A DNA stretch of 54,541 nucleotides from positions 1-54,541 of the forward strand of contig JAYGFS010000338.1 in NCBI GenBank assembly GCA_046581765.1, read 5' to 3'. This DNA is from Verrucomicrobiota bacterium (GTDB lineage Bacteria > Verrucomicrobiota > Kiritimatiellia > SS1-B-03-39 > UBA6053). The position numbers and the translations under genes are program-made. Of the stretch, positions 7,010 through 46,855 are shown piece by piece; within the stretch, counting starts at the first letter, position 1, and each line of letters starts with the position of its first letter. The notes under the pieces are model-generated. The model ran no database searches, had not been told where the DNA came from, and saw nothing but the letters and a program-made list of their open reading frames with translations.

Positions 7010-7259
7010 GGCATCTCCGGTTCAAGGTGCCCGGCCGGACGAGGCCGGGATGCACATCCCTGCAAGCTACGAATGGATTGTACATGGCCACTTCCTCCAT
7101 TCAAGTACTTCCCGGGGAGGTTTATCCCCCACGCACACGTTAACGGCACCATTTTTTTTGGTTCTTTCACGTGGTCAGCGGGCAAGGACCCCATCGCCTT
7201 CCGGTGGAGCACGAGAAAAACCTGTTGCATTCCCCCGGCCGGGTCCCAAGGATAACCCC

Positions 7260-19545: not shown

Positions 19546-19700
19546 GGATCGACGGGTTTAGTATGCGTAATTCCGGGATGTGTAAAGGGGATCGAGAGCC
19601 GGGGGCCGGGTTTTGAGGGTGATGATTCGGGTTTCAGGCACGGGAAGCCCGGTATCCACGACAGGCGCTGAAGGTTCGGGATCCTGGACGAAATGACCCA

Positions 19701-25078: not shown

Positions 25079-26368
25079 CTATTTTAAAGACCCAAGCAGG
25101 GGCCTGAGTTGCGCGGCAATCACCTCCGCGGCTTTCGCACAGCCTGCAGGTTTAAAGTGGCAATCGTCATACATCATTTCCAGGGTCTTGGGCACCTCGG
25201 CGGCGAGATCGATCACCAACACCCCTTCCGCCTCGGCCGTGTCGACCAGCACCTGGTTAAATCGCCCCATCGCCTGCTCCAGCACCGGCGTGCGGTACGC
25301 CTCCGTGCGGGTCTGTACGCAGAGCAACTCCTCCAGCTCGGGCGGCATGGGCGATTGCCAGGTCGTCGGCTGGGTCATCAGCACCGGCACAACGCCTTGC
25401 ACTTTCGCGGCCGAGATCAAGGTGCGGATATCGGACCGATAACGCGCAAGGGACGAATCGAAATCGTCCGGCAAGGCGTCGAGTCCCCCGGCGGCAAGCT
25501 TGCGCTGGCGCGCGGCGCGGATATCGGCAATTTTCTGGTCGTAGTTTTCTACCACGCTGCCCTGGTTGATTTGCTGACGAAGGGACCACCACTCCTTGAA
25601 CCTGCGCACCATCCACAGGCGGCGATAATACAAGCCGCCAACTTTTTCGTTAAACAAGAGGCTGTCCCCTTCAATCCGGGCCATGCGCTGGTCGTAGTCC
25701 TCGCGAAAGGCGCGCCCGAGATCGTTGATCCCAGCCAGGATGAGGACGAACTGGAAGTCCTTGATAAAGGTGTAGTTTTCAACCTGATAGGTATGGTTGG
25801 GCATAAAATGCCCGCTGCGACCGGCATTCCCGACGACCACCCCCTGGTCTGCCAATCGTTCATGAAGCTGCCACGGCCAACTTTCCACGTCGGTTACGGC
25901 ACGACATTCCGTGGTACTTCCGCCGATGCACAAGACGGCCTTTCCCGCGGGAAGCTTAAAGTCAGGGGCCCGAACGCCATAGCGATTGACGGTAAAAACC
26001 GCACGAACATCCTCACCCGGGATGGCTTCCTTCAACTCGAGCACGGTCTGCCCTGGATAGTGTGGAAGCCACTGGTCCACCGGGATATGCGGATCGGAGG
26101 CCCGGCCGAAAAACTCGACCAGTACCAAGCCGAGAAGGACGGGATACACGACGGAGATCAGTCGAAAAGTCCGCGTACGATTGACGGTGATAAGGAAGCC
26201 ACCGACCACGTAGGCGAGCAGGAGGACGATGCCGGCAACATCGAGCCGGCCGAGTGCCAGGGGACGCTCGGTGATACACCCGTGAACCAGCAGGACAACA
26301 TGAATCGCGGCAGGCAGGAGATAAAGCATCCAGCGAGCGCGGCGTTCAATGACAGCATCGGTGGTCAC
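25079..26368 (-). CDS. membrane-anchored SGNH/GDSL-family hydrolase
   Basis: Block I is VLCIGGSTTE, block III is LILAGINDL and block V is DDCHF. There are N-terminal TM helices. The start was set at the GTG 26366..26368 (GTGA overlap with the upstream TGA). The ATG at 26329 is an alternative. Confidence 0.75.
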   Translation of the reverse strand: MTTDAVIERRARWMLYLLPAAIHVVLLVHGCITERPLALGRLDVAGIVLLLAYVVGGFLITVNRTRTFRLISVVYPVLLGLVLVEFFGRASDPHIPVDQWLPHYPGQTVLELKEAIPGEDVRAVFTVNRYGVRAPDFKLPAGKAVLCIGGSTTECRAVTDVESWPWQLHERLADQGVVVGNAGRSGHFMPNHTYQVENYTFIKDFQFVLILAGINDLGRAFREDYDQRMARIEGDSLLFNEKVGGLYYRRLWMVRRFKEWWSLRQQINQGSVVENYDQKIADIRAARQRKLAAGGLDALPDDFDSSLARYRSDIRTLISAAKVQGVVPVLMTQPTTWQSPMPPELEELLCVQTRTEAYRTPVLEQAMGRFNQVLVDTAEAEGVLVIDLAAEVPKTLEMMYDDCHFKPAGCAKAAEVIAAQLRPLLGSLK

Positions 26369-27315
26369 GAATCCTTGCGGTTGATCTCTTCGTTCACGAT
26401 GTAAAGCGGGCGGCGGCGAACGTCGCTGTAAATCCGGCCGATGTACTCCCCGATAATCCAGAGGAGGATGAATTGCGCTCCGACAAACCCGAACAGGATG
26501 ACCACCAGCCACTTGTAGAGTTCATATTTGGCCGCGGGGGGACCAAAGACGGTGTCACAAACCATGTAGCCAAGGAAGATCATCGAGATGAGGATGCTGG
26601 TGATGCCGACCCACAGGCCGATCTTGAGCGGGGTAAACGAAAAGTTGAGGATGCCATCCATGGCCAGCTTGAACATTTTCCTGAAGGGGTAATGCGTTTC
26701 CCCGTGCAGGCGATCCGGACGATCGAAGTTGACGAAATCATGCTTGAACCCCAACCAGGCGACCATGCCGCGCAGGTACCGCGCGTGCTCATCGAGGCGG
26801 GTAAGGTTCTCGAGCACGATGCGATCGATGAGCCGGAAGTCGCCTACCTGGCGGGGGATGTCCACGTCCGACATCCCGGAGAGGATCCGATAATAGAGAT
26901 CGGCGGTCCATTTCTTGAGGGCCTTGTCGCTGCGGGACACCCGGCGGGCATAAACGATTTGATTCCCCTCTTCCCACTTGGCCACCAGCTTGGGAATGAC
27001 CTCCACCGGGTCTTGAAAATCGGTATCCATGGTGATGACCGCATCGCCAAGGGCGCGTTCCATACCCGCGGTGAGCGCGGCCTGGTGGCCGAAGTTTCGA
27101 CTGAAGCTAGTGACCCGAACCTTGTCATGCTGAGCGGCGATGGCCTTGACCCGCGCGAGGGTCTGGTCACGGCTGCCGTCATCGACGAAAATAAACTCGA
27201 CCTCGTAGGCCGAGAGCGATGCCTCCGCCATGGTATGCAAGGCCTCAAAGAAGGGCAGCACGTTGTCTTCCTCGTTAAAGACGGGAAGCACGAGGGATAG
27301 GCACTTCCTGCTCAT
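26365..27315 (-). CDS. polyprenyl-phosphate glycosyltransferase (GT2, GtrB/CsbB-like)
   Basis: 316 aa. LSLVLPVFNEEDNVLPFFEAL...FIFVDDGSRDQT...FSRNFGHQAALTAGM...TMDTDFQDP is present, plus two C-terminal TM helices. The junction with the upstream gene is ATGA. Confidence 0.92.
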   Translation of the reverse strand: MSRKCLSLVLPVFNEEDNVLPFFEALHTMAEASLSAYEVEFIFVDDGSRDQTLARVKAIAAQHDKVRVTSFSRNFGHQAALTAGMERALGDAVITMDTDFQDPVEVIPKLVAKWEEGNQIVYARRVSRSDKALKKWTADLYYRILSGMSDVDIPRQVGDFRLIDRIVLENLTRLDEHARYLRGMVAWLGFKHDFVNFDRPDRLHGETHYPFRKMFKLAMDGILNFSFTPLKIGLWVGITSILISMIFLGYMVCDTVFGPPAAKYELYKWLVVILFGFVGAQFILLWIIGEYIGRIYSDVRRRPLYIVNEEINRKDS

Positions 27316-28283
27316 GTGACCCGCCGGGCCGGTTGTCCACGTTTATTCATCCAGATGAAAGGTAACCCGAATCCGGCAATGATCAATCCGATTCCGAACT
27401 GGGCAAGCGACAGCGCGGTGGCCGGTTCGGCGGAGATTCCCTGGGTGCCGAGGAGAACCACAAAGGAGAGTTCCCGCACCCCGAGACCCCCGAAACTCAG
27501 GGGGACAGCCGTGATCAGCCAACTGATGGCAGTTATCATGGACAAGCTGAGAAACCCGATGGGCAAGTCGAGGTTCCGGGCGATCAAGTAGACGGCGAGG
27601 AAGGAGACGAGGTGCATGACGAAACAGAGCAGGATGCCCATCGCAACCCGCCCGCGATTGCTGCGATAGTATTCCGTTGCCCCGGTCCAGGTCTCCAGCA
27701 GGCGCACGAGCTGGGCACCCCGTTTTCCGCATCGACCGAGGATTCCCGCCAGGCTCCGGTTAACGGGTCGGTTCAAGCTCAGCCCGGCCCCGAGCAGGGC
27801 GAGGGAAAACATGCCGCCCATGCCGAGCACGAAAGGGACCTTCTGCTCGAGGCCCTCGGCAAAAACCCCGCATATCGTCCCCAGCAGGAGAATCGAGAAC
27901 AGGCCCACCACCCGGTCGACCAACATGCCCACCAGGTTAATCGCCCGATGACTCTCGGCCTCCTTCATGATGTAGACCGAACGAACGAGGTCACCACCGA
28001 GGGCGCCGGGCATGACGAGGTTAAAGGTGTTGCCGATCATGGTATAGCGGAAATAATCGAATACGTGCCATTGACCGGTGGGATCCGGATTCAGCCACAT
28101 CCACCGCATGCTGGACAAGCCATGGCGAAACACGGTGAGCACGATGTAGAGGAGCACACAGGGTACACTCAAGCCCGCGATGTGTGCCGTGGCCGAACGC
28201 AGGTCCACGAAGTGGAAAAGCAGGCCCAGGCAGACCGTGAGCACCGCAATGCGAAAGACCAGGTTAACGGTTTTTTTATTCAT
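27312..28283 (-). CDS. flippase-like membrane protein (LPG-synthase-TM / UPF0104 family)
   Basis: Trimmed to the ATG at 28281..28283 (MNKKTVNLVFRIAVLTVCLGLLFHF...). The ATG at 28334 is an alternative. It has about 8 TM helices. The motif NLVMPGALGGDLVRSVY is typical of the family as I recall it. Confidence 0.75.
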   Translation of the reverse strand: MNKKTVNLVFRIAVLTVCLGLLFHFVDLRSATAHIAGLSVPCVLLYIVLTVFRHGLSSMRWMWLNPDPTGQWHVFDYFRYTMIGNTFNLVMPGALGGDLVRSVYIMKEAESHRAINLVGMLVDRVVGLFSILLLGTICGVFAEGLEQKVPFVLGMGGMFSLALLGAGLSLNRPVNRSLAGILGRCGKRGAQLVRLLETWTGATEYYRSNRGRVAMGILLCFVMHLVSFLAVYLIARNLDLPIGFLSLSMITAISWLITAVPLSFGGLGVRELSFVVLLGTQGISAEPATALSLAQFGIGLIIAGFGLPFIWMNKRGQPARRVT

Positions 28284-28383
28284 GGAATGTCGTGGGCTAC
28301 TGGTTTCCGGATTCGCAGCCGCTCGTCGCAGCATGTGCTGCTTTCGGTTGCCGGGTTTGCCACCTTGCCGGGACCGCCGGAGC

Positions 28384-29322
28384 TCAGGGATTCTTCTGGA
28401 TGAAGATATCCCAGCCACCCACCAGGGAATACCGGCGGCCGAGCAATCTCCACGGCAGCTTGATGCAGTGGGCGACCAGGGAGCGGAAAAAATGTTCACT
28501 GAAAGCGGTTTCCACGATGGAGGGCTGGGAATGCACGATCCGGTGTGGACCGGATGGGCTGATCGTGGAAAAGTACCCCTCCCAGAAACCCTGGCCCATG
28601 TCGTGGATATGCCCGGGAAAAGTGAAGTCAAGCGTGAGCCCGAAGCGTTTCATCAACCTGAGGACCGGGACCACGAAGGGCGTGCGCACGTAGAGGATGC
28701 CCCCCGGGCGGAGAAACGCGAGGAGGCGTTCCGTCTCGGTCTTGGCATCCGGTAAATGCTCAATAATCGCACTGGCGATCACGATGTCAAAGGTGCCTGC
28801 CGCGGATGCAAGGGCATCCAGGCTGGGTTCGTGCCGCATGGTTATGGCTTCGCGGGTACTCTCCACAACGGCATCGTGGTATTCGACAACGGTGACAACG
28901 ACTTCCGGATACCCGGCAGCCACCAGCTGTTCCGCCATGCGCAGGACGATGGTTCCGTCGCCCCCGCCAAAGTCGAGGATGTTCAGGGAACTCGGTGACA
29001 AGGCCCCCTGTATGACACCGGCCAGGTGGCCCGCGAAACGATTCACGTGCTTAAACGTAACCTGCGAGTCCCCGGGACCATCGTTCCCGGAGCGTTCGTA
29101 ATATCCGGTATAATACATTTCCAGCGCCGCGACGGTGGGAATACGCGAAGCCGTGCACACGCCACAGGAACGGCACTTCATCAAGTCGACATCCGGGTCC
29201 GCCTGCAACCGGGTGACCGCTACCCGGTCATCCACGTCGCAAAACAGGCAGTGGGTCTGCACAGCACCCAGCTCGCTTTCACCCAGGTGCTTGCTCGCAT
29301 GAAACGTGGTGGCATTCGGCAT
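28384..29322 (-). CDS. class I SAM-dependent methyltransferase with N-terminal CxxC...CxxC zinc-ribbon
   Basis: The start ATG at 29320..29322 forms a TGATG junction. Zinc-ribbon cysteines are HCLFCDV...KCRSCGVC. SAM motif I is LNILDFGGGDGTIV. Confidence 0.8.
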   Translation of the reverse strand: MPNATTFHASKHLGESELGAVQTHCLFCDVDDRVAVTRLQADPDVDLMKCRSCGVCTASRIPTVAALEMYYTGYYERSGNDGPGDSQVTFKHVNRFAGHLAGVIQGALSPSSLNILDFGGGDGTIVLRMAEQLVAAGYPEVVVTVVEYHDAVVESTREAITMRHEPSLDALASAAGTFDIVIASAIIEHLPDAKTETERLLAFLRPGGILYVRTPFVVPVLRLMKRFGLTLDFTFPGHIHDMGQGFWEGYFSTISPSGPHRIVHSQPSIVETAFSEHFFRSLVAHCIKLPWRLLGRRYSLVGGWDIFIQKNP

Positions 29323-30886: not shown

Positions 30887-31846
30887 TCAGGTGTCTTCAT
30901 TCGCATCATCATCCGAATCCACAACGTAGGTCGGACGATCCGTCATGCGGAGGTGTATGCGAGCGAGGTATTCGCCGATGATGCCCAGTGACAGGAGCTG
31001 CGCACCGGCGAAAACAGAGATGATAATGGACAGGAAGGCAAAACCCGGGACCGATGTCTCGTAACGGATCTTCAGGTACATGACGTGGGTGAATACGCCG
31101 ATGCCAAAGAGGATCATGCAGAAACCGATGACATTTGCCAGGCGCAGGGGCAAGGTGCTGAAGCCGGTCATCATGTTCAGGGCGTGGGAAATCAATTTGC
31201 GCACGGTGTAGCCGGAAGAACCAAAGGCACGCTCCTCGTGGCGTACCGGTACGGCAGAAAATCTTGTGGTCGACCAGGTCAGCAACACATCGATGGATAC
31301 ATTCGGGCTTTGATAATCCACAAAGGCCCGGCGCAGGCGCGTGCGAAACACCCGGAAGGCCGATGACTGATGGGCCGTCTCCGCCCCCATCACTCCCTGC
31401 AGTGCGAGCTTGGTGATCCGGGACGCCAGGTTGCGGAACAGCGAGTGCTGCTCTTTTTCCGGTGGACCGTAAACGACGTCATGCCCTTCCTCCAGTCGTG
31501 CGATCAACTTGGCCATCTCTTCCGGCGGATGCTGCAGGTCGTCATCCATGGTAACGAGGATCTCGTAACGGGCCTGCCGGATCCCGCACAGCAGGGCATT
31601 GTGCTGGCCGTAATTGCGCAACAGGTTGACGGGCCTGATCCACGTATGCTCCCCGGAGAGCTCATGCATGACCGCCCGACTGTTATCGGGGCTGCCATCG
31701 TTGACCAGGATGCATTCATACGAGTCGGCCAGCGTGGGCAGCACCGTGCCCAGGGCCTCGATCAAGGCGGGCAGGCATTCGTCGCTCCGGTAGACCGGAA
31801 CCACGACCGAGATCCCCGGTTTCAGCTTTGTGTGATTGGAGTCCAT
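30887..31846 (-). CDS. polyprenyl-phosphate aminosugar transferase (GT2, ArnC-like)
   Basis: 319 aa. ISVVVPVYRSDECLPALIEAL...CILVNDGSPDNS...LLRNYGQHNALLCGIRQA...TMDDDLQHPPEE is present, plus two C-terminal TM helices. This is very like my recollection of ArnC/PmrF. Confidence 0.9.
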   Translation of the reverse strand: MDSNHTKLKPGISVVVPVYRSDECLPALIEALGTVLPTLADSYECILVNDGSPDNSRAVMHELSGEHTWIRPVNLLRNYGQHNALLCGIRQARYEILVTMDDDLQHPPEEMAKLIARLEEGHDVVYGPPEKEQHSLFRNLASRITKLALQGVMGAETAHQSSAFRVFRTRLRRAFVDYQSPNVSIDVLLTWSTTRFSAVPVRHEERAFGSSGYTVRKLISHALNMMTGFSTLPLRLANVIGFCMILFGIGVFTHVMYLKIRYETSVPGFAFLSIIISVFAGAQLLSLGIIGEYLARIHLRMTDRPTYVVDSDDDANEDT

Positions 31847-35630: not shown

Positions 35631-35865
35631 AGGAGATCCCCTTGTTTTCGAGCAGGTCGATGATGTCCTGGACCCGGGCCACGCCGGTGGCCTCCTCCGG
35701 GGTGAAATGATAGCCAAAGGTCTCCTTGACCCCCACGGCCACCGAGACCACGGCGAGGGAGTCCCAGGTTTCCACGTCCTCACGGGTCAGGTCGAAACTG
35801 AATTCCTCCGGTTCAAGGAGGAAGATATCCAGCAGTAAATCACTTAGTTTTTCGCGGTTCGTCAT
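35620..35865 (-). CDS. acyl carrier protein
   Basis: 81 aa from the ATG at 35863..35865 (MTNREKLSDLLLDIF...). The phosphopantetheine attachment motif is ETWDSLAVVS. It is acidic and of helical-bundle size. Confidence 0.85.
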   Translation of the reverse strand: MTNREKLSDLLLDIFLLEPEEFSFDLTREDVETWDSLAVVSVAVGVKETFGYHFTPEEATGVARVQDIIDLLENKGISFAD

Positions 35866-35878
35866 AGGGCAGGTACCT

Positions 35879-37060: not shown

Positions 37061-37064
37061 GATT
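37056..37064. repeat. 9-nt TTCATGATT, left copy flanking the wecE segment
   Basis: An identical 9-mer occurs at 38210..38218. The left copy contains the AMP-ligase start codon. The right copy contains the stop of the GT-C gene. Confidence 0.9.
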
Positions 37065-37098
37065 GCACGCCCCGCGTGCTTGGTTTACCAAGAGGTCC
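37061..37098. promoter_or_regulatory. 38-bp divergent spacer with two short palindromes
   Basis: GCACGC-CCC-GCGTGC (37065..37079) and CTTGG-TTTA-CCAAG (37079..37092) fill the whole gap between the AMP-ligase ATG (37060, minus) and the wecE ATG (37099, plus). A regulatory role is inferred only from position. Confidence 0.3.
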
Positions 37099-38229
37099 AT
37101 GAAGATTCCTTTCAACCGCCCCTTCATCGTCGGCCGTGAACTCGAGTACATTCGCGAAGCGGTCGAGGGCGGACAACTGGCGGGGGATGGCCGTTTCACC
37201 CAGCGCTGCCAGGCCTGGATGGAAGAGCGTTTTGATATCGACAAGGTACTCCTGACAACGTCCTGCACCATGGCACTTGAGATGTCGGCTATCCTGTGCG
37301 ACATCCAACCCCGGGACGAGGTCATCCTGCCCTCTTACACCTTTGTCACCACCGCGAATGCTTTTGTGCTGCTGGGTGCGCAACCCGTGTTCGTCGACAT
37401 CGATCCCACCACGCTGAACATGGACCCCTCGGCCATCGAGGCCCGCATCACGGAGCGCACCAAGGCGATCGTTCCGGTTCATTACGCGGGTGTAGGCTGT
37501 GACATGGACGCGATTGGTGCGATTGCCAAAAGGCATAAGCTCCGCGTGGTCGAGGATGCCGCACAGGGGGTGAACGCGCGTTACCGGGACCGCTACCTCG
37601 GCAGTATCGGGGATCTGGGTTGTTTCAGCTTTCATGAGACCAAGAATTTCATTGCCGGGGAAGGTGGTGCCATCACCATCAACGACCCGGGCCTGGTCGA
37701 ACGCGCGGAGATCATCCGCGAAAAAGGCACGGACCGGAGCAAGTTCTTCCGGGGCGAGGTGGATCGGTATACCTGGGTGGATATCGGGTCGTCGTTTTTA
37801 CCGTCTGAACTGGTGGCCGCCTACCTCTTCGCGCAACTGGAAGAAGCCGATCGCATTACCGAGAAGCGGCTGGCGATCTTCGACCGCTACAGCGCGGGCC
37901 TTCAATCGCTGCAGGATGCGGGAACCCTTCGCCTGCCCATCATTCCCGAACACTGCCAGCACAACGGGCATATGTTTTACCTGATCCTGGATTCGCAGGA
38001 ACAGCGGGCGGACCTGATCGCCCATTTGAAAAGCCGGGACATGCTTGCCGTCTTTCATTATATCCCGCTGCACACCTCGCCCATGGGTCAACGCTTTGGC
38101 GGCCGGGCGGGTGATCTGCCGGTGACCGAGGACCTGAGTAAGCGCCTGCTGCGCCTGCCCTGCTACTTTGAACTGAGCCCTTCCGAGCAGGAGTGCGTTA
38201 TCAAGGCGGTTCATGATTTCTTCCGGTAA
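37099..38229 (+). CDS. wecE: dTDP-4-amino-4,6-dideoxy-hexose (4-keto-6-deoxyhexose) transaminase, DegT/WecE family
   Basis: 376 aa from the ATG at 37099. Near-colinear similarity to E. coli WecE as I recall it: MKIPFNRPFIVGRELEYIREAV, LPSYTFVTTANAFVL, VPVHYAGVGCDMD, VVEDAAQGV, GCFSFHETKNFIAGEGGA, AEIIREKGTDRSKFFRGEVDRYTWVDIGSS, HMFYLIL, AVFHYIPLH, RLLRLP. It is the only + strand gene inside the 44-kb minus-strand array. Confidence 0.95.
   Translation: MKIPFNRPFIVGRELEYIREAVEGGQLAGDGRFTQRCQAWMEERFDIDKVLLTTSCTMALEMSAILCDIQPRDEVILPSYTFVTTANAFVLLGAQPVFVDIDPTTLNMDPSAIEARITERTKAIVPVHYAGVGCDMDAIGAIAKRHKLRVVEDAAQGVNARYRDRYLGSIGDLGCFSFHETKNFIAGEGGAITINDPGLVERAEIIREKGTDRSKFFRGEVDRYTWVDIGSSFLPSELVAAYLFAQLEEADRITEKRLAIFDRYSAGLQSLQDAGTLRLPIIPEHCQHNGHMFYLILDSQEQRADLIAHLKSRDMLAVFHYIPLHTSPMGQRFGGRAGDLPVTEDLSKRLLRLPCYFELSPSEQECVIKAVHDFFR
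38210..38218. repeat. 9-nt TTCATGATT, right copy flanking the wecE segment
   Basis: Identical to 37056..37064. It lies inside the 19-nt convergent overlap of wecE and the GT-C gene. Confidence 0.9.
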
Positions 38230-39836
38230 AGGCGTATTTCGGGGCCGCTGAACGGGATCTTGATGCGCACTTCCCCCGGCCAGGATTGCACCAGCTCGTA
38301 GTTTTCCTGGTCGAAAATCAGGTCCTGGTAAAAGCGAAACTCCTCGGCGGTCGGAATCTGTTTATCCAACCACCACCCGCCGCCAACCCAGTTGAAGTCT
38401 TCATCCAGGTGCTTGTGTTTGTCCAACAGGGCCCGCCGCATACGCACGAGGTTTATGTCGTTTGTAACAATGTATTCCGGCTCATCGAGAATGGATACGA
38501 GCTGGTACTTCTCCGCGCGAATAACCGGATACCGCCACTCGTGCTCCCGCCAGTCCCGAAAGTCCGGCGCATTGGCCATGGTTAGTCGAGCGCCTTCCGG
38601 GAGATACCCCGCCAGGTAGGCTGCAGCGATGGTGCGGGAATCGTGCTTCCTGACCTCAATCGCGATCGCGATGCTGCGGAGATTCCACACCAGGATAAAA
38701 ACCGCCAGCGAACAGGCCAGCGAACGAGTGAGAAGGGAGCGATGCTGAATCAACCGCGCGAGCATGCGAGCGGAGAACAAGGCCAGGATCGTGGATATAA
38801 ACAGCAGGTAGCGCGCCGGAATCCACCCGCCCCAGAACAACAGGATGGAGCATACCAGGATGGGCATGCTCAGCCAGCACTTGAAATAGGGATGGTTGCG
38901 CCCCGGGTAGGAGAAAAGAAAACCGGCCAGCGGCACCCAGGCCAGGAACGGGGTATACATCTCGTTAAAGGCGAGACCCCACCCGCGACGAATGCGCCAG
39001 CCCTGGTGCATTTCCCCGGGGAACCAGAGATCCGGGCGACTGGTCATCCAGGCGACATACTCGGGGAAATGCAGGAAAATATGCGGCGTCGTGATGAAGG
39101 TGGTCAGGATGGCAACGCCGGCATAGATCGACATGGGAGCGATCCAGGTCCTCGCTTCCTCCCACCAGCGCGATCGGTCTTTCAGGATCGCTCCACCCAG
39201 GTAAACAAGGGGCACGATCCCGATGAAGAAGGCGTAGATCTTCATGCCAATGAGGTACCCGGTCGCCATGCCCAGTAACACGAAGGCCCGCTTGGATTTG
39301 CGCTCGAAAGCCCAGGGCACGAGGAGCAGGAGCAGGGTGACAAAGAACGACATCGGCACATCGAGGCTGCAGATCGGCGAGTTAATCACATGATAATAAC
39401 CAAGGGCCACCAGGGCGGCGGCAAACCAGGCGGTCATCCCATCGTAGAGTTTGCGCCCCAGCTTGAAGACCAGGAACACACATCCCACGCCGAACAGGCT
39501 GTTCACGAAACGAAAGGCCAGGACATTGAACTGCAAGCGGTCGATACCGCCAAAGAGTACACCAATCTTATTCCAGCCGATGTTCACCGGGTAACAGCAG
39601 ATGGCGAGCGTATACTGCAGGGCGGTTCCGTATTCATAGCGATGGTTGTTGAGATAGTTGCCGGGGAAGTTGGTCATCGACCGCCAGGCCTTGTGCTCGT
39701 CGGGATGGTAGTAACCCGTGTGTTCATCGATGCCGGTTCCCCAGGTGAGCATGGACAGGCGGAGGACCAGGCTGAGCAGGGCCAGCAGGATCAACCAACG
39801 ATGCTGCCGAATCAATATGAACCATTTCTTGCGCAT
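38211..39836 (-). CDS. GT-C-like (PMT_2/ArnT-type) integral membrane glycosyltransferase candidate
   Basis: Trimmed to the ATG at 39834..39836 (MRKKWFILIRQHRWLILLALLSLVLRL...), which forms a TAATG junction. The first loop is GTGIDEHTGYYHPDEHKAW. It has more than 10 TM helices and a soluble C-terminal domain. Its 3' end overlaps the wecE 3' end by 19 nt. Confidence 0.8.
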   Translation of the reverse strand: MRKKWFILIRQHRWLILLALLSLVLRLSMLTWGTGIDEHTGYYHPDEHKAWRSMTNFPGNYLNNHRYEYGTALQYTLAICCYPVNIGWNKIGVLFGGIDRLQFNVLAFRFVNSLFGVGCVFLVFKLGRKLYDGMTAWFAAALVALGYYHVINSPICSLDVPMSFFVTLLLLLVPWAFERKSKRAFVLLGMATGYLIGMKIYAFFIGIVPLVYLGGAILKDRSRWWEEARTWIAPMSIYAGVAILTTFITTPHIFLHFPEYVAWMTSRPDLWFPGEMHQGWRIRRGWGLAFNEMYTPFLAWVPLAGFLFSYPGRNHPYFKCWLSMPILVCSILLFWGGWIPARYLLFISTILALFSARMLARLIQHRSLLTRSLACSLAVFILVWNLRSIAIAIEVRKHDSRTIAAAYLAGYLPEGARLTMANAPDFRDWREHEWRYPVIRAEKYQLVSILDEPEYIVTNDINLVRMRRALLDKHKHLDEDFNWVGGGWWLDKQIPTAEEFRFYQDLIFDQENYELVQSWPGEVRIKIPFSGPEIRLYRKKS

Positions 39837-41125
39837 TAGAATAAACCGCGAAATATCTGCATGTCCGACCAGTCCCAGAGCCGGGAGGGATCCTCGTTCA
39901 CACTGGTCGGCGTGCCATTCCAGTCGTGTACCTCGCGGCTGCTCAATCCGCGAAACTGGACAAAAGCGCTGAACAGGCCGGCGCAGGCCAGGCCCAGGAG
40001 CGCGGGACGCTTTCCGTCCTCGAGTACCGGCAAGAGGAGCAGCGCCCAGACCGGCGCGATGCCGGCGAAGAGACGCGGGCCGTAGGACCAACCCGCCCAC
40101 CAGACGGGCCAGAGGGCATTGAAGGCCAGGTGCACGAGCACGATAATCGAAAGATAGCGCAACATCAGCCGGGTCCTTTTTCCCCGCCAGATCATCACGC
40201 AGGCAAGCAGGCTGAAGATAAACACCGGCGTGAAAACCAGCAGCCCGCGATTGGGACTGGCCACCAGACCTGCCAGGCCCATGAGCACGGCAGAGAACGA
40301 CGTGGCGATCTCGTCGACCGGCCCCTGGTAGGGCTGCACCAGGGTGCCGTAGGTCACGAGGCAATGGGCAACGTACAACGCGGCAATCGCCCCACCGCTG
40401 AGCACGAAGGGAATGAATTGTTTACGGTGATGAAGGAACAGGTAAACCGTGAACGCCGTGGTGGCGACGATCATATCCGGTCGCAGCACGGTCGAGAAGG
40501 CCAGCGGGAAAGCCGCGGTCCAGGCCCAGCGCCCGTTCTCAACCAGCAGCAGGGCCAAGGCGGCGAGCAAAAAGAACGCACCCGGGTTATGTGACCAGTA
40601 GCCCCCGACATGGCTCGACACGTGCGGCGTCACCAGGGCAAAAAGCACCGTGAGGACGACAACCTGCCAGGTTTTCCTCGCAAGCTGTCGGGCGACGAGG
40701 AAAAAAAGCGCCACGGAGGCCGCCGCGTAAATCTTGGCGAGCAGCGGGGTGATCAACATGGACCGCCAGACCCGATTCGACACGTGGCGGTAACGCCAAT
40801 TCAGCATCGGCAGGAGCGGTATGGCCGCCACCGCATTCCCGATGGTATAGTGATTCACGAGGCCAACGGATTCCAGCTGGTAGATCCGGTAATCCCTTTC
40901 GGGATCGAGGTATTCCTGCAGGAAAGGATTCTCGGGATACAGGGCCTCGAGATCGGGTCGAAATTCACTCAACTCGATATTGCCCTCCGCGAGCAGGCTC
41001 ATCGCGGTCGGCACGTACCAGAAATTATCGCTCCGGGTCATGATTTCGCCCGGAACGTCCCAGGGCAGGTACAGGACCAGGGCCGAGAGGCCGGCGACGA
41101 CTGGACCGAGCAGGACCTTAAGCAC
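39836..41125 (-). CDS. uncharacterised polytopic membrane protein, paralog B of a tandem pair (GT-C-like)
   Basis: Start proposed at the GTG 41123..41125, an 8-nt overlap with the upstream TAA. This aligns the N-terminus with the paralog. Shared motifs are NFWYVPTAMSLL, AKIYAAASV, GGYWSHNPGAFF, SPNRGLLVFTPV, WPVWWAGWSYGPRLF and LWDWSDMQIFRGLF. Confidence 0.75.
   Translation of the reverse strand: MLKVLLGPVVAGLSALVLYLPWDVPGEIMTRSDNFWYVPTAMSLLAEGNIELSEFRPDLEALYPENPFLQEYLDPERDYRIYQLESVGLVNHYTIGNAVAAIPLLPMLNWRYRHVSNRVWRSMLITPLLAKIYAAASVALFFLVARQLARKTWQVVVLTVLFALVTPHVSSHVGGYWSHNPGAFFLLAALALLLVENGRWAWTAAFPLAFSTVLRPDMIVATTAFTVYLFLHHRKQFIPFVLSGGAIAALYVAHCLVTYGTLVQPYQGPVDEIATSFSAVLMGLAGLVASPNRGLLVFTPVFIFSLLACVMIWRGKRTRLMLRYLSIIVLVHLAFNALWPVWWAGWSYGPRLFAGIAPVWALLLLPVLEDGKRPALLGLACAGLFSAFVQFRGLSSREVHDWNGTPTSVNEDPSRLWDWSDMQIFRGLF
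39855..39879. repeat. 25-nt direct repeat, copy 1 (ATCTGCATGTCCGACCAGTCCCAGA)
   Basis: 24/25 identical to 41152..41176. It encodes the shared WDWSDMQI C-terminal motif of the paralog pair. Confidence 0.85.
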
Positions 41126-42434
41126 CGTAGGTCCCTCCCAAGCCGCGGAAGATCTGCATATCCGACCAGTCCCAGAAGCGGTCAATATGATCGTTCACAT
41201 CATTGGGTTGACCGTTCCAGAGATGGACATCGTGATCGCTCACCCCTCGATATGTAACGAAGGCACTCCAGGCGATGCACAGTGCGGCGAAAACGGCGAT
41301 CGGCACCTTGCCTTGACGCGGCAGGGATTGCAGCACCCGGAAAAGGGGAATCGTGAGCAACAACCAAACCGGTATGTAGGTACAGAACAGGCGCGGACCG
41401 TAGGACCAGCCGCCCCACCACATGGGCCAGAGGGCGAGGAATATCCAGTGACCGATCAAGGCGATAGCGAGAAAGCGGTACAGCACCAGCGCATCGGACC
41501 GGTCGCGGAAGATATGGATCATCGACCAGAGACTGAACAGGCAAACCGGCATGTAAACAAACAATCCGCGGCTCGGGCTGACCAGCAGGCCAAGGACCCC
41601 GGAATCGAAATCACGCCCGATGACCCCGGTCGGCCCGGGGTACGGCTGCACCCATGCACCGTAGCTCGCCTTGCAGATGACCACGTAGACGAGTGCCACC
41701 ACGGCACCCGAGATCGCGTACACCATGAAGGCTTTGCGACGATTGCATAACACGTGGAGGGTCAGCAGCCCGATCAGCACGATGACATCCGGCCGCATCG
41801 CAGCCGCGATGGCCAGCGGAATACCCGAGAGTCCGGCCCACTTGTCCGGCAAAGCAGTCAGGGCCCCAAGTCCGAGCAACACAAAGAAGGCTCCGGGATT
41901 GTGCGACCAGTAGCCCCCCGCATGCTGACACGCGTTCAGGCTGGCAAAGGCCAGGATCAAGGCAAGCATGAGGGCGATGCCGATGGAACCGGACAGGCGA
42001 TACGCGACAAGGAACAACAAGCCCACCGACGCGGCCGCGTAGATCTTGGCAATCAAGAGTGTCATGTGGATGGAAACCCAGATCGAATTGGGCTGCTTGC
42101 GGAACACCGGCTTGAGCGCCGCCACGAAGGGCAGCGCGGCAATGGAGGTAAACACCGGGTAGTTGTTGAGTACACGGCCATCCGCATCACGCGTCACGCG
42201 ATAGTCTGCTTCCCCGTAATACGTGCGGAGGTAGCTCAGGTCTTCAGCCAACTCGGTGATGGGGGCCTCGAACTCGTTCAAGTCAAAATTGCCTTCATCC
42301 AGGAGACTCATCGCGCTGGGCACGTACCAGAAGTTGTCGTTCTGGTTGAGTACCCGGGTGACATGATCCAGCGGCCAGTAGGCCACCAGGACCACCCCGC
42401 TCAGCACAAGTGCGATAAACAATGGGTGCTTCAT
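41118..42434 (-). CDS. uncharacterised polytopic membrane protein, paralog A of a tandem pair (GT-C-like)
   Basis: 438 aa. The ATG at 42432..42434 forms an ATGA overlap with the UGM stop. Motifs are NFWYVPSAMSLLDEGNFDLNEF, AKIYAAASV, GGYWSHNPGAFF, SPSRGLFVYMPV, WPMWWGGWSYGPRLF and FWDWSDMQIFRGL. Confidence 0.8.
   Translation of the reverse strand: MKHPLFIALVLSGVVLVAYWPLDHVTRVLNQNDNFWYVPSAMSLLDEGNFDLNEFEAPITELAEDLSYLRTYYGEADYRVTRDADGRVLNNYPVFTSIAALPFVAALKPVFRKQPNSIWVSIHMTLLIAKIYAAASVGLLFLVAYRLSGSIGIALMLALILAFASLNACQHAGGYWSHNPGAFFVLLGLGALTALPDKWAGLSGIPLAIAAAMRPDVIVLIGLLTLHVLCNRRKAFMVYAISGAVVALVYVVICKASYGAWVQPYPGPTGVIGRDFDSGVLGLLVSPSRGLFVYMPVCLFSLWSMIHIFRDRSDALVLYRFLAIALIGHWIFLALWPMWWGGWSYGPRLFCTYIPVWLLLTIPLFRVLQSLPRQGKVPIAVFAALCIAWSAFVTYRGVSDHDVHLWNGQPNDVNDHIDRFWDWSDMQIFRGLGGTYGA
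41152..41176. repeat. 25-nt direct repeat, copy 2 (ATCTGCATATCCGACCAGTCCCAGA)
   Basis: 24/25 identical to 39855..39879. Confidence 0.85.
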
Positions 42435-43822
42435 GGATTTCGCCGTCCGTTCACCAGGGCGGGTTGATGCAGGGTCGGTTCAGCCTCAGGACCGGCTTTC
42501 GCCCGCAGGCGGTCGACGCATTCGTACCCGAGGGCAAAGGAATGATCCTGGTTGGCTACCTCGTATTTCCAGCTGCCGAAGCGGCCACGGCTGTAGATAC
42601 CCTGCGCTTCAAAGGCGCGCAGCAGGGGATCCACGATCGCATCCCGACCGAGGAAGGGCGTGGGATAGCCCTGTTCGATCCGCCGGTACTCCCGGGAGAG
42701 GATCTTGACCCCGGACGGCAGCAGGCCGTCCTCCTTCAAGGCGCGAACGGTATCCTCCACCAGGGTCTCGTGGTTGACGGGCTTCTTCACGCTCTCCGAG
42801 GTCTCGGTCATCAGCGACCACTGCTCGCCGGGCCGGGACACGTTGTTCGGGCTGTAGTTACTGAACACGGTCACCCGATAATAGGGGCTGTTCGATTCCG
42901 GGAAATACATCCAGCACTTGGTATCGAGATGTTCGGGTGTTTGCCCTTCCATGCCGATGCCGACGATATGGGTCGAGGAATAGACCAGGTCCCCGGCCGT
43001 GCGGGCCTCCACCACCCCCGGGGCCAACTCGATGAGGTGGTTCAGCGGCATGGTCGAGATCAGGTGGGTGTAGCTGTAGTTATTCCCCTGCGCATCGGTG
43101 ACCGTCTTTTTCACGGGATCGATCGCGGTGACCGCCGTGTTCAGCCGGATCTGTTCACCCGGAAGCATGGCCCCTATTTTCTGCCAAACCGCGCCGGTGC
43201 CGCCTTCTCGTGGAAACCGAAATACGGCAGTGGGCCCCCAGGAAACGGCATCTTCACCCTTGCAGATGGACTTTAGAACCCCCTCCAGCGCAGGTACGGA
43301 AACGCGTTCGCCGATCCAGGCGAAATCCAGCTCCTCCGGCGGAAAAGCCCAGACCTTGAAATTGTAGGGTTCCATGAACAACTCCGTGATCCCCGCGCCG
43401 AAAGTCGCCCGCATCCAATCGCCGAAATGTGCGGGCGATGCAGCCGTGGCCGTGGCGGCTGCCTGCATGAGTCCCTGTACGCCTTTCCAGCGATCCTCCG
43501 GGTCGAGTCGATGCAGATTGTTCTGGAAAGGATACGGGATAAATCGGTTGCGCATCCACACCCAGCTTTCACGCTGGTGGGAAATCCAGCCGTCCGGGCC
43601 GAGCGCGGCATCCATGTAGCGGTCAAAGGTTTCGTAATGTGAGAACTGGACATGTCCACCGTGATCCCAGAGGAATCCCTGCTCGTCTACCCAGGAGGAC
43701 GCGAGGCCGCCGAAGTGCCCCGCCGCCTCCAGCAGCAGCCAGTCCTCGCTGTTTTCGTGTAAACGGGTTGCTGCGCCAAGACCTGTTGGCCCGGCACCTA
43801 TGATGATCGTTTCTCTATGCAT
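42431..43822 (-). CDS. glf: UDP-galactopyranose mutase, long eukaryote-type form
   Basis: Start at the ATG 43820..43822 (MHRETIIIGAGPTGLGAATRL). The track start at 43876 is a TTG. The signature strings match my recollection of Aspergillus/Leishmania UGMs: GGLASS, GGHVQFSHYETFD, PYPFQNN, EPYNFKVWAFP, AWIGERVS, FRFPREGGTG, YSSTHIVGIG, KCWMYFPESNSPYYRVTVFSNYSPNN, GYPTP, SRGRFGSWKYEVANQDHSF, VNGRRN. Confidence 0.9.
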   Translation of the reverse strand: MHRETIIIGAGPTGLGAATRLHENSEDWLLLEAAGHFGGLASSWVDEQGFLWDHGGHVQFSHYETFDRYMDAALGPDGWISHQRESWVWMRNRFIPYPFQNNLHRLDPEDRWKGVQGLMQAAATATAASPAHFGDWMRATFGAGITELFMEPYNFKVWAFPPEELDFAWIGERVSVPALEGVLKSICKGEDAVSWGPTAVFRFPREGGTGAVWQKIGAMLPGEQIRLNTAVTAIDPVKKTVTDAQGNNYSYTHLISTMPLNHLIELAPGVVEARTAGDLVYSSTHIVGIGMEGQTPEHLDTKCWMYFPESNSPYYRVTVFSNYSPNNVSRPGEQWSLMTETSESVKKPVNHETLVEDTVRALKEDGLLPSGVKILSREYRRIEQGYPTPFLGRDAIVDPLLRAFEAQGIYSRGRFGSWKYEVANQDHSFALGYECVDRLRAKAGPEAEPTLHQPALVNGRRNP

Positions 43823-43885
43823 AAGGCGATGGGGTGGGAATGAACCGTCAACAACGGCCCGGGTTAAGCGATACAAGGTCCCGCG

Positions 43886-44722
43886 CTACTCGACAGCGGC
43901 AGCGTGAAGGTCAAACCAGTACTGGTACGGATTTTCAGACCGTCGAGCCAGGTGCCGGGTGAAATAGTTGATATTGGCGGAAACGGTTTTCATGGATTGC
44001 CACTCACCGTAGGTACCCTCAGCAAAGGGCCCTGAACAGCCTTCATTAAAATACCAGCCATCCTGGCTCCGCAATCGATGTACCCAGGCATCCACGCGTT
44101 TGCGCCGGGCCAGCTTGATCAATCCCCGGGAACCCAGTGAAAAATCCTTAAGTCGGCGGTTCAGGAAATGATGCCAGCGATGCCGAAACACCAGGGGGCG
44201 GCGCAGGGGACAGAAGGTCTGCTGGTCGATCATCTTGAACTTACGATAGCCCTCTTTGTACAGCTGCCTGATAAAATCCACCCCGCTGCATTCCACGGAA
44301 ATAAATTCCGGGCGCGGGGCTTTATGCAGCGCATCCAGGCAGAGCTGGTCGTTTCCCTCAATATCGATCTTCATGAAATAGGGCGTCCCCAGCTCGGCCA
44401 GGATATCCGCGAAGGGCCGGGTGGGCACCTCGACCCGCGTCAACGCGTGACCCCGGCGACCCGCAGCCTCCTTGTCGAACGAACTCCAGACACTTTTCGC
44501 TTCATTCACCCAGAAATCCGCATGCCCAGCCTCAGCGGCCACTCCCAGGTTCAAGATGTTCAGGTCTCCCCGATCGATGGCCTCGCGGAAGCGGTCTTCC
44601 GCCCCGGTGCAGAGCACCGGGTCCGCCTCGATAGCCAACACGCGATAACCGCTGTGCAGGTAGTACGCGGTGTCGTCACCGTTATTCATGCCGACATCGT
44701 AAATGAGCTTTTTATCCGTCAT
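43886..44722 (-). CDS. FkbM-family SAM-dependent methyltransferase
   Basis: Trimmed to the ATG at 44720..44722 (MTDKKLIYDVGMNNGDDTAYYL...), an 11-nt overlap with the upstream stop. Motifs are YDVGMNNGDDT, LAIEADP and FMKIDIEGNDQLCLDAL. Confidence 0.8.
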   Translation of the reverse strand: MTDKKLIYDVGMNNGDDTAYYLHSGYRVLAIEADPVLCTGAEDRFREAIDRGDLNILNLGVAAEAGHADFWVNEAKSVWSSFDKEAAGRRGHALTRVEVPTRPFADILAELGTPYFMKIDIEGNDQLCLDALHKAPRPEFISVECSGVDFIRQLYKEGYRKFKMIDQQTFCPLRRPLVFRHRWHHFLNRRLKDFSLGSRGLIKLARRKRVDAWVHRLRSQDGWYFNEGCSGPFAEGTYGEWQSMKTVSANINYFTRHLARRSENPYQYWFDLHAAAVE

Positions 44723-45644
44723 CGGACTCCTGCCGCCAGAGTTTCGGTAGGGAGGCTTCAAGGGTTTGAAAGGCAAAGCCCGGAAAATGTGAGAGTAACT
44801 TCTGTGCGTCCAGCACTGCTGAAGCATTATCGAGATCACGACGCGCGGCTATATTGAAGTCGATGTTCACATCGACAACGGCCTTGAACAGATCGATTAA
44901 TTGCAGCACGGAAACACCACGTCCGGTGCCGAGATTGTAGGTGTCCGAGTGCCTGAGATCACGCAACGAATGGCTCATCAAGTAGGCAATATCTTCCACG
45001 TGTACATAATCACGCAGGGTCTGGTCATCGCCGAATACCTGCAGGGTTTCACCCTTCCGAACTCGATCCATCCACACCGCAATCACCCCTTGCTGTCGAT
45101 CCGGATCTTGACGCGGGCCATAGGCATTCGCAATCCGGTACACGTCCGTGGCGATCCCGTATCGTTGCTGCACGTAATACAGCAGGTGTTCGGCGGTCAA
45201 CTTGCCGATCCCGTACGGGTTGAAGGGCCGGGGCACCACGCGTTCATCGATCAGTCCCTCGCGCGTGCCGTAGACCGTACCTCCCGAGGAGGCAAACACG
45301 AGCTTGCGTACCCCCGAGGCCGCCGCGCGACGGGAAAGATGGAGGAGAATCGGAAGGTTCGACTGCACCTCGATTTCCGGCTGCTCCCATGCCTTGACCG
45401 GATGGGAGTTCCAGGCAAAATGATAGACCACATCAAAACCTTCATCCATGAAGGTCATGGAATCATTATCGTCCAGGATATGGGGGATCAACCGAACGCG
45501 GTCTTCGACAGAGCGGAGATGCTTTGAACACCCATCGACAAATTGATCTAGCACGCTCACCTCATGACCGTCGTTGACGGCCCGCTCGACAAAATGCGAA
45601 CCGACAAATCCATCGCCCCCGGTAACCAATATTCGATGTGCCAT
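44712..45644 (-). CDS. NAD-dependent sugar epimerase (UDP-hexose 4-epimerase, GalE-like SDR)
   Basis: Start at the ATG 45642..45644 (TGATG junction). Rossmann motif ILVTGGDGFVGSH. The epimerase-type catalytic region is ASSGGTVYG...YGIGK, with no dehydratase Glu. Confidence 0.88.
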   Translation of the reverse strand: MAHRILVTGGDGFVGSHFVERAVNDGHEVSVLDQFVDGCSKHLRSVEDRVRLIPHILDDNDSMTFMDEGFDVVYHFAWNSHPVKAWEQPEIEVQSNLPILLHLSRRAAASGVRKLVFASSGGTVYGTREGLIDERVVPRPFNPYGIGKLTAEHLLYYVQQRYGIATDVYRIANAYGPRQDPDRQQGVIAVWMDRVRKGETLQVFGDDQTLRDYVHVEDIAYLMSHSLRDLRHSDTYNLGTGRGVSVLQLIDLFKAVVDVNIDFNIAARRDLDNASAVLDAQKLLSHFPGFAFQTLEASLPKLWRQESDDG

Positions 45645-46855
45645 CAGGAACTCCCCAGGCGATTCCACAGGTTTCCGGGCAGGTGCCAGGCAAGCCTGGA
45701 CTTCCAGGTTTTCCCCGGATTACCCGGGAGCTGAAAACCCGACCAATCCACCGGGCCGGGAAACCGGGTAAACAGGTCGTCCAGGATCCGGCGGAACTCC
45801 GCGAGCGTGACCTGGATGGAATGTTGTTCGCCCTGGCGACGTGCGGCCGTCTTCAGGCGGGAAAGTCGTGCGGGATCACGGTACAGGTCCAGGACCTCGG
45901 CGGCCGCACGGGCAGCATCACCTACCGGGAAAAGCAAGCCGTTCTCGTCATGGGAGATGATTTCCTCCACCCCGCCCGGCACGGATGCGACCACGGGAAC
46001 GACCCCTTCGGCCAGGGCATGAAAGAGTACAAGCGGCATGCCTTCATACGCGGAAAACAGCACCAAAACATCACTGCCAACGAAATGCTGCATGGCTTCG
46101 GAGTACGGCAGCGAACCGGCAAGCGTCACGTGACCCGCCTCAATCGCGTCGACCAGCGATGAGGCAATCTCATCGTAGGCATCGCCGTGGCCCACGATGA
46201 CCAACTCATATGGAATCCCGGATGTTTCCATGGCCCGGGCAAAGGGAATTAAATCCTGCGCGTTCTTTTGTTCACGGTTCAGGCGCGACATGTACACGAT
46301 ACGGATCCGGCCCTCCCGCATGACCTCCAGCTGCCAGTTCTCCGGAACCTGCACCCCGATAAACAGCTCGCCGACGCGGGTGTGCCATTTTTCATCCAGG
46401 TTTTCACGCAAGCGCTGGGTGATGCGGCAACTATTTCCCAGGATCAACTCCAGGCGGGACACCAGGACCTTGGCATAATCGTAGTAGGTCTGGTCCGGGC
46501 GGTCCACGAGACAGAAGTTGATCGCCGGAAGGCTCCCCGGCACACAGGCGAGCACGTCCTCGGCATGGCGCCATTCGACAAATACGAGCAGGCCCGGATC
46601 AAAGGCGCGTATCGCGCGGGACAAATGACGTTGAAAAGATCGTTCACTGTGCCCCCGCTTTCGATGGAGGGCATGCATCATGGACGCCAGCGGACGGGTC
46701 TCCTCATCGATCTCCATCTCCGTGTCAGCCAGGTCGAAGAGGGCCACGTCGTAGCCCTCCTGCGGCAGATAGTTCAGGCAATTCAGGAGAAAGGTGCGCA
46801 CGCCACCGTACTGGCCAATGTCGTCCCATATAAACAGAATGCGTTGAGGGTGCAT
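45644..46855 (-). CDS. glycosyltransferase family 4 (GT-B)
   Basis: 403 aa. RILFIWDDIGQYGGVRTF and FSAYEGMPLVLFHALAEGVVPVVASVPGG are present. Confidence 0.88.
   Translation of the reverse strand: MHPQRILFIWDDIGQYGGVRTFLLNCLNYLPQEGYDVALFDLADTEMEIDEETRPLASMMHALHRKRGHSERSFQRHLSRAIRAFDPGLLVFVEWRHAEDVLACVPGSLPAINFCLVDRPDQTYYDYAKVLVSRLELILGNSCRITQRLRENLDEKWHTRVGELFIGVQVPENWQLEVMREGRIRIVYMSRLNREQKNAQDLIPFARAMETSGIPYELVIVGHGDAYDEIASSLVDAIEAGHVTLAGSLPYSEAMQHFVGSDVLVLFSAYEGMPLVLFHALAEGVVPVVASVPGGVEEIISHDENGLLFPVGDAARAAAEVLDLYRDPARLSRLKTAARRQGEQHSIQVTLAEFRRILDDLFTRFPGPVDWSGFQLPGNPGKTWKSRLAWHLPGNLWNRLGSS

Follow-up and report, generated by a model that had tools for sequence, protein, structure and literature searches.

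In the Gtr, Arn and CsbB/YfhO systems, glycosyltransferases of family GT2 make the polyprenyl-phosphate-sugar donors that GT-C glycosyltransferases use (PMC11127046, PMC8035078). Three-component systems such as GtrA/GtrB/Gtr*, CsbB/GtcA/YfhO and the GT136 pentofuranose systems encode synthase and GT-C together, and the furanoses known to be delivered in this way are ribofuranose, arabinofuranose and xylofuranose (PMC11127046, PMC8035078). In GT136 and several solved GT-Cs, the residue proposed to be catalytic is an aspartate just after the first transmembrane helix (PMC11127046). Here we analysed a stretch of 54,541 nt from a Verrucomicrobiota bacterium (contig JAYGFS010000338.1; the whole stretch is called the window below), in which two adjacent genes, A and B, encode paralogous polytopic membrane proteins. 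We consider it likely that A and B are anciently duplicated GT-C glycosyltransferases that use lipid-phosphate-sugar donors to glycosylate a surface glycan outside the cytoplasm. What is new is the family, which is unclassified; the kind of enzyme is well known, and a standard GT-C mechanism would be expected.

The two genes are as follows; all genes discussed lie on the minus strand unless stated otherwise.

41118..42434, minus strand: gene A, the A-type paralogue, a predicted GT-C-fold membrane glycosyltransferase of 438 aa with an ATG start (open reading frame, AlphaFold2 model and Foldseek)
39836..41125, minus strand: gene B, the B-type paralogue, also of predicted GT-C fold, 429 aa with a GTG start

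The proteins align end to end in BLASTP with 43% identity and 61% positives (E 1e-112), a similarity far beyond chance. The preliminary description of this DNA had recognized them as neighbors of about 430 aa by seven motif blocks, and all seven occur in both: NFWYVP(S/T)AMSLL, AKIYAAASV, GGYWSHNPGAFF, RPD, SP(S/N)RGL, WP(M/V)WW(G/A)GWSYGPRLF and (F/L)WDWSDMQIFRGL. The GTG start of gene B is preceded by a GGAGGG ribosome-binding site and corresponds to the start residue of the orthologues P0006-P0010 in the alignment. The junctions first described were each confirmed in the sequence. An ATGA at 42431-42434 overlaps the stop of the upstream UDP-galactopyranose mutase (UGM) gene with the start of A, A and B overlap by 8 nt (A stop TAA at 41118-41120, B start GTG at 41123-41125), and a TAATG joins the B stop to the start of the next gene, C, with base 39836 in common. 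Overlaps or near-zero gaps run along the entire co-directional operon, from ~53.6 kb to ~10.5 kb. Tight junctions are thus generic here, and the coupling of A is real but not specific to UGM; of the proposed translational coupling to the UGM gene the overlap stands and the special tie does not.

AlphaFold models built on a 43-sequence family alignment gave a pLDDT of 93.2 and pTM of 0.93 for A, and 94.1 and 0.94 for B. When these were compared with the PDB by Foldseek, the matches with a probability of about 0.5 or higher were solely GT-C enzymes or the GT-C-like PIGU subunit of GPI transamidase. The GT-C matches were ALG12, ALG9, ALG3, STT3, PglB, DPY19, PimE, AftA, Pmt4, ArnT and Emb, with those of B including STT3, ALG9, Pmt4, PimE, PglB and ArnT. 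TM-scores to these GT-Cs ranged from 0.45 to 0.55 over the two proteins, among them ALG12 (E 1.6e-4, TM-score 0.55), ArnT (0.53, with B) and PimE (TMt 0.51, with B). Both proteins are polytopic and their models superpose on solved GT-Cs, as belongs to the GT-C superfamily fold. The lipid-phosphate-mannose enzymes ALG12, ALG9, ALG3 and PimE are the best or near-best structural matches and resemble A and B in size (~400-550 aa) and in being almost wholly membrane-embedded helices with no large soluble domains. They differ in showing 9-16% identity in the structural alignments, no sequence-profile match in the PDB, and in belonging to other organisms and pathways.

Sequence profiles point in the same direction. 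Among the 43 family members, eight match Pfam PMT_2, one Glyco_transf_22 and one PMT. A direct comparison was available within the operon itself.

38211..39836, minus strand: gene C, a 541-aa GT-C of the PMT_2 (ArnT/PMT-like) type, PF13231, with a TAATG junction with B

Gene C passes the cut-off of PF13231 (E 1.3e-8, 35.6 bits against 26.1), in keeping with the early view that the further gene coupled to B is GT-C-like. The A/B family profile aligned to a gene-C (PMT_2) profile in hhalign with a probability of 86% (E 4.9e-6) over 290 columns, the gene-C profile being a shallow one for which the homologue search gave four proteins only. With A and B themselves below the PF13231 threshold and a profile match of 86%, the relation is therefore one of remote homology to PMT_2, not membership. 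The comparison with ArnT and other PMT_2-type enzymes (GT83/GT39) reads likewise. Common to both sides are the GT-C fold, a long first periplasmic loop with an aspartate after the first transmembrane helix, the profile homology of ~290 columns, and family members that match PF13231 in their own right. A and B differ in falling below the Pfam threshold, in being shorter (~430 aa) and in lacking the C-terminal periplasmic domain, and they carry motifs of their own that gene C does not have, DNFWYVP, SPxRGL, WWGGWSYGPRLF and RxWDWSDxQxxRGL. The sole named model matched by A and B is NCBIfam NF047440 (37.0 bits and E 1.8e-9 for A, 31.5 bits and E 7.9e-8 for B, over residues ~120-400), the LA_3751/LA_3752 putative glycosyltransferase of Leptospira. 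It is likewise named after adjacent paralogues, but the scores of A and B are far below its curated cut-off of 200 bits, and that family is itself uncharacterised, with no mention in the literature searched. The statement that the pair belongs to no named family thus holds, and the suggestion that it is GT-C-like was borne out: both proteins are modelled with this fold and share remote homology with PMT_2-type enzymes. Judged by their models and profiles, A and B are GT-C-fold glycosyltransferases in a large unnamed family remotely related to those of the ArnT/PMT_2 type.

The conservation pattern was examined in the same 43 sequences, which span 22-77% identity. Invariant are D33, S286, P287, R289 and G290, P296, G342, G346 and R348, and W421 and D425; R214, P215 and several tryptophans are nearly so. 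The first loop comprises residues 20-93, and its sole invariant acidic residue is D33, within the DNFWYVP motif. The loop is therefore long and bears a conserved acid, as in GT-Cs, for which a catalytic role is inferred. The preliminary description had called the acidic first loop GT-C-like, and the long loop with D33 agrees with this; the LLDEG/LLDEGNFDLNEF stretch did not hold up as the catalytic acid, and D46 of A is an alanine in B. A motif of the form RxWDWSDxQxxRGL (residues 419-432 of A and 415-428 of B) is found family-wide, ~20 residues past the last transmembrane helix and on the periplasmic side of the topology model. In position and composition WDWSD recalls the WWDYG of oligosaccharyltransferases, a resemblance that offers a lead only.

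The helices of the models suggest a topology of ~11 transmembrane segments in which the N-terminus is cytoplasmic and the C-terminus periplasmic. Lysine and arginine make up 18-22% of the inside loops of this arrangement versus 6% of the outside loops. In relatives that have an extra domain at the N-terminus, either PA14 or an unknown one, two more transmembrane helices are present; in these natural fusions the first GT-C helix would therefore still run from inside to outside. Other relatives have a soluble domain of ~290 aa directly after the WDWSD motif. In this topology D33, SPxRG, WWGGWSYGPR and the WDWSD tail would all be periplasmic, and the question raised earlier, whether the conserved acidic residues face the periplasm, has a probable yes for D33, supported by the 11-helix model, the charge bias and the domain fusions.

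The pair is old. A-type and B-type sequences form two separate clades with several lineages in each, which implies that the duplication is older than those lineages and that both copies have been kept; the idea of a duplicated pair is supported accordingly. Sixteen positions are fixed differently in A-type and B-type proteins, in the first loop, in later outer loops and in transmembrane helices. These differences fit, and do not prove, the diverged specificity that had been suggested. Searched against 1.84 billion representative proteins, the family profile gave 28,081 hits at E<=1e-3; of these, 17,647 remained at E<=1e-10, and 4,583 clusters passed E<=1e-30. Relatives at 24-36% identity come from Acidobacteriota, Chloroflexota, Cyanobacteria, Deltaproteobacteria, Verrucomicrobia, Patescibacteria, Binatia and one Methanosarcina metagenome-assembled genome (MAG), and the names given by the sources, where there are any, are almost always 'hypothetical protein', the exceptions being generic JGI labels on the distant P0030 and P0061. 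A tblastn search of A against plasmids gave no match.

Candidate donor synthases are encoded 7-12 kb downstream in the same operon, and a candidate flippase adjoins one of them.

30887..31846, minus strand: GT2a, an ArnC/GtrB-type polyprenyl-phosphate sugar synthase (NCBIfam PRK10714 (ArnC) E 1.6e-58, PgfS E 1.5e-44)
26365..27315, minus strand: GT2b, an ArnC/GtrB/PgfS-type polyprenyl-phosphate sugar synthase (NCBIfam PgfS E 1.8e-74, ArnC E 7.6e-47)
27312..28631, minus strand: an LPG_synthase_TM-family membrane protein (Pfam PF03706 E 8.4e-40; at least 7 hydrophobic segments)

GT2a and GT2b match ArnC/PgfS over their full length and each has two C-terminal transmembrane helices, so that, as in three-component systems, a GtrB/ArnC-type synthase is encoded with the GT-Cs. 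One of the close relatives (L006) has a GT2a-like GT2 (34% identity over 305 aa) directly after gene C. The LPG_synthase_TM gene overlaps GT2b by 4 nt. Its family is that of the MprF flippase domain, and the coupling to a GtrB/PgfS-like synthase suggests flipping of a lipid-linked sugar here, which makes the protein a candidate flippase; no GtrA, SMR or MATE flippase was found at the locus. The proposed catalytic aspartate after the first helix is shared with the GT136-type systems. The locus differs from the three-component systems in having two synthases and at least four GT-Cs in one very large operon, in having the LPG_synthase_TM protein as its sole flippase candidate in place of a recognized GtrA, SMR or MATE protein, and in that a hexofuranose (galactofuranose) donor would have no precedent in the literature searched. 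The Arn system is paralleled in the ArnC-like synthases together with a DegT (ArnB-like) aminotransferase.

With ArnC/GtrB-type GT2s and a possible flippase in the operon, a periplasmic lipid-phosphate-donor model is the best supported one for A, B and C. A polyprenyl-phosphate-sugar donor would be made on the cytoplasmic face by GT2a or GT2b and then brought to the periplasmic side, with the LPG_synthase_TM protein as a possible flippase. From the fold class, the active sites of A and B would open toward the periplasm and D33 in the long first loop would act as catalytic base, the donor phosphate being held by conserved arginines, for which R289 (SPxRG), R348 (WWGGxSYGPR) and R214 (RPD) are candidates. 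The C-terminal RxWDWSDxQxxRGL tail may close the site or bind the acceptor. The cytoplasmic GT4 and GT2 enzymes of the locus would build the glycan backbone, which A, B and C may decorate or extend, each adding one sugar at a different position or in a different linkage. A fourth GT-C-type protein, of the DUF6044/YfhO kind, probably also uses lipid-phosphate-sugar donors in the periplasm. Polyprenyl-phosphate-galactofuranose, formed from what UGM makes, is one possible donor.

Several observations weigh against this model. Pfam gave no match for A or B at E<=1, a PDB sequence search with A alone or with the 43-sequence profile gave none either, and to our knowledge no member of the A/B family has been characterised. 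Known GT-Cs are matched with TM-scores of only ~0.5, which do not tell users of lipid-phosphate monosaccharides from users of lipid-diphosphate oligosaccharides such as STT3 and PglB. The LPG_synthase_TM gene, whose assignment as a flippase is a guess, was not detected in the L006 lineage, and no consistent GT2 or flippase partner was seen among the 104 genes flanking distant family members.

A more specific form of the lipid-phosphate-donor model takes its sugar from the upstream neighbors of gene A.

42431..43876, minus strand: eukaryote-type UGM (PDB 4dsg match; stop overlaps the A start)
43886..44839, minus strand: FkbM-family methyltransferase (Pfam PF05050 E 3e-14; likely 278 aa from M40; synteny)
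44712..45668, minus strand: NAD-dependent sugar epimerase/dehydratase (Pfam PF01370 E 1.6e-44)

Here UGM would make UDP-galactofuranose, an ArnC-like GT2 would transfer the sugar to polyprenyl phosphate, and galactofuranose would be added, or a galactofuranan built, in the periplasm by A and B, perhaps together with C. Emb and Aft enzymes use decaprenyl-phosphate-arabinofuranose, which is a parallel to such a scheme. The UGM matches the Trypanosoma cruzi (4dsg, E 1.3e-136) and Aspergillus fumigatus (E 1e-128) enzymes over its full length, its translation probably begins at M19, for a protein of 463 aa (42431-43822) like its orthologues, and the blocks GGHVxFSH, FRFPxxGGTG, YFPE..PYYRxTxFSNYS, GYPTP and RGRFGSWKYEVxNQDHSF are intact, so that the active-site motifs are conserved. 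It is a long, eukaryote-type UGM in a bacterial genome, to which the model of the short bacterial Glf, TIGR00031, gives only E 2e-4, and it has a distant relationship to PRK07208, an uncharacterised family of flavoproteins (E 1e-40). The epimerase two genes upstream is a candidate GalE-like supplier of UDP-galactose.

All close relatives whose flanking DNA was long enough show the order FkbM-UGM-A-B(-C), the relatives checked being L011, a Kiritimatiellia MAG and the nearest genome match (91-97% protein identity along the cluster), L001-L005 and L012 at 78% identity, L006 at 52-56%, and L091 and L098. UGM lies directly upstream of each evaluable A-type gene, its stop overlapping the A start, in six lineages and down to 52% A identity; the contrary finding, absence of UGM from these genomes, was not made. 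In L006 the five-gene core is the same and the downstream genes differ, so that the core is kept while its flanks change. In the metagenomic contig L091, gene calling split the A-type gene into pieces of 287 and 139 aa (L091:8660-9989); it could be a pseudogene or carry a frameshift, or the assembly could be at fault.

Beyond this clade the association fades. Relatives at 35% identity or below lie mostly in unrelated contexts: P0014 and P0015 have no sugar genes nearby, P0023 is near YfhO and PMT_2 genes, and P0021 follows rml genes. About 73 of 78 distant loci have no UGM-like neighbor, and a census of the 104 immediate neighbor genes of distant members showed no dominant partner family, on which we rejected a tie of the family as a whole to UGM or to a GT2. 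The expected co-occurrence with UGM thus held for every evaluable close relative and failed for most of the distant ones. At five distant loci in three other phyla the GT-C is adjoined by a UGM-superfamily flavoprotein and a GT2 (L053, L071 and L056/L062/L070), a recurrence that seems more frequent than chance would give. These three-gene modules (L053:6412-11587, L071:2427-6509, L056:9875-13388, L062:9929-14819) are hosted by Margulisiibacteriota, Verrucomicrobia and Bryobacteraceae MAGs, and the flavoprotein of L053 and L071 is of the PRK07208 family (E 1e-200).

Other points tell against galactofuranose transfer by A and B. All characterised bacterial galactofuranose transferases that we know of use UDP-galactofuranose in the cytoplasm, and no mention of a polyprenyl-phosphate-galactofuranose donor, of a link between UGM and GT-Cs, or of LA_3751 was found in the literature searched. 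At least four ordinary GT2s and five GT4s at the locus could consume UDP-galactofuranose, and the genes next to one of the ArnC-like GT2s, for an aminotransferase and for acyl activation, suggest an amino-sugar donor instead. The overlapping junctions are generic in the operon, and as the six lineages all belong to a single clade, their gene order may be inherited rather than selected. As the wider family is not generally linked to UGM and the overlaps are generic, a galactofuranose donor for A and B is plausible from gene order but unproven, and we judge galactofuranose transfer to be unlikely, though worth keeping in view. Somewhat more doubtful still is the notion of FkbM-UGM-A-B-C as a dedicated periplasmic galactofuranosylation machine, in which A and B might form an obligate heteromer like EmbA/EmbB or Pmt1/Pmt2 and the galactofuranose would perhaps be methylated.

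The preliminary description had left open whether the pair are transferases or polymerases, and a second alternative is that A, B or both are polymerases or ligases that move whole oligosaccharides from polyprenyl diphosphate, as analogues of Wzy, WaaL or oligosaccharyltransferases. No Wzx, Wzy, WaaL or ABC exporter was recognized by Pfam or NCBIfam anywhere in the window, which leaves room for such an activity, and STT3 and PglB, which use lipid-diphosphate oligosaccharides, are among the best structural matches. The WDWSD tail, by its likeness to WWDYG, may be a lead in this direction as well. In the Wzy polymerases of CAZy clan GT-C3, a long loop near the N-terminus bears a conserved Asp together with two Arg and a His (PMC10920833), and a long N-terminal loop with a conserved Asp is thus a likeness to A and B. 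The wzy of E. coli O104 is assigned to GT122 in the supplement of that paper (PMC10920833). We therefore compared the A/B family with a GT122 profile of 28 relatives of the O104 Wzy, all of them Pfam EpsG (PF14897); hhalign gave a probability of 0.07% (E 0.69), and with PF14897 in 0 of 43 members GT122/EpsG Wzy membership was rejected. None of the 43 members matches any Wzy, EpsG, O-antigen-ligase or STT3 Pfam model, and neither WaaL nor SEDS structures appear in the Foldseek lists of A or B. The resemblance to STT3 and PglB is at the general GT-C level: an oligosaccharyltransferase (GT66) is not indicated, with no sequence match to the STT3 model in A, B or the family and a tail of only ~40 aa after the last transmembrane helix. 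The detectable sequence relatives (PMT_2, GT22 and PMT) all use lipid-phosphate-monosaccharide donors, the two lipid-phosphate-sugar synthases of the operon need GT-C consumers, and four other unassigned polytopic proteins at the locus could be the polymerase or flippase. Polymerase or ligase activity is accordingly improbable; of the two earlier options the transferase is favored and the polymerase finds no positive evidence, including no relation to EpsG/GT122.

Finally, A and B could be non-enzymes, either transporters or flippases for a lipid-linked intermediate or structural membrane proteins, being polytopic and without a soluble catalytic domain or named family; this is very hard to credit, since transporters in the Foldseek lists all have probabilities of at most 0.13 and TM-scores below 0.2, and the invariant D, R, R and D lie in predicted outer-face loops, not along a transmembrane pore, as fits a GT-C active site. 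The transporter or flippase reading was rejected on these fold grounds, and structure and profile comparison gave no confident assignment to a transporter or a Wzy family.

The lipid-phosphate-donor GT-C pair is set in a window that is one large glycan-biosynthesis island by Pfam and NCBIfam, with a glycan locus of ~45 kb. It holds a sugar nucleotidyltransferase, a 4,6-dehydratase, five GT4s, several GT2s, two FkbM methyltransferases and a class-I SAM-dependent one (28384-29352), a sulfotransferase, an AsnB-like amidotransferase, a DegT aminotransferase, and AMP-binding, ACP, LuxE and LuxC genes. The glycan of this locus is probably sulfated and methylated. The fourth GT-C-type protein lies further along the operon.

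17407..19545, minus strand: fourth GT-C-type protein, DUF6044 with a YfhO C-terminal match (PF19510 E 2e-29, PF09586 E 1.8e-7)

This 712-aa polytopic DUF6044/YfhO protein adjoins the sulfotransferase (17407-20570, minus strand). Between gene C and GT2a, the stretch 31822-38229 encodes DegT (on the plus strand), AMP-binding, ACP-like, LuxE and LuxC proteins and two unknown ones; this block looks like an Arn-like pathway for an N-acylated amino sugar via a lipid-phosphate donor, and it is absent from the L006 lineage. Polytopic proteins without a family are encoded at 29322-30866 (514 aa), 22899-25043 (714 aa) and 7008-8723 (571 aa), and a soluble 729-aa protein without family assignment at 49375-51564. 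Comparison by hhalign of the A/B family profile with single window proteins (C, four polytopic unknowns, the LPG_synthase_TM protein and the soluble 729-aa protein at 49375-51564) was too insensitive, the only marginal match being the 571-aa protein (E 0.005). Outside the operon, at 505-6516, are an esterase-like protein, which weakly matches AXE1 and glucuronyl esterase, and another of 1195 aa that contains FG-GAP and ASPIC/UnbV repeats.

Collectively, the locus is unusually rich in parts for periplasmic glycosylation, with at least four GT-Cs and two lipid-phosphate-sugar synthases in addition to methyl- and sulfotransferases. A and B represent a large and widespread GT-C family without a Pfam model, a functional name or a studied member, for which the D of DNFWYVP, SPxRGL, WWGGxSYGPRLF and RxWDWSDxQxxRGL offer motifs usable for annotation and mutagenesis. 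If the linkage to UGM does not reflect the donor, A and B would be an ordinary pair of side-chain transferases. If it does, extracytoplasmic furanose addition would be extended from pentoses to galactofuranose, and the periplasmic galactofuranosylation scheme, if true, would represent the first pathway with a lipid-phosphate-hexofuranose donor, through which this large uncharacterised GT-C family would gain a function.

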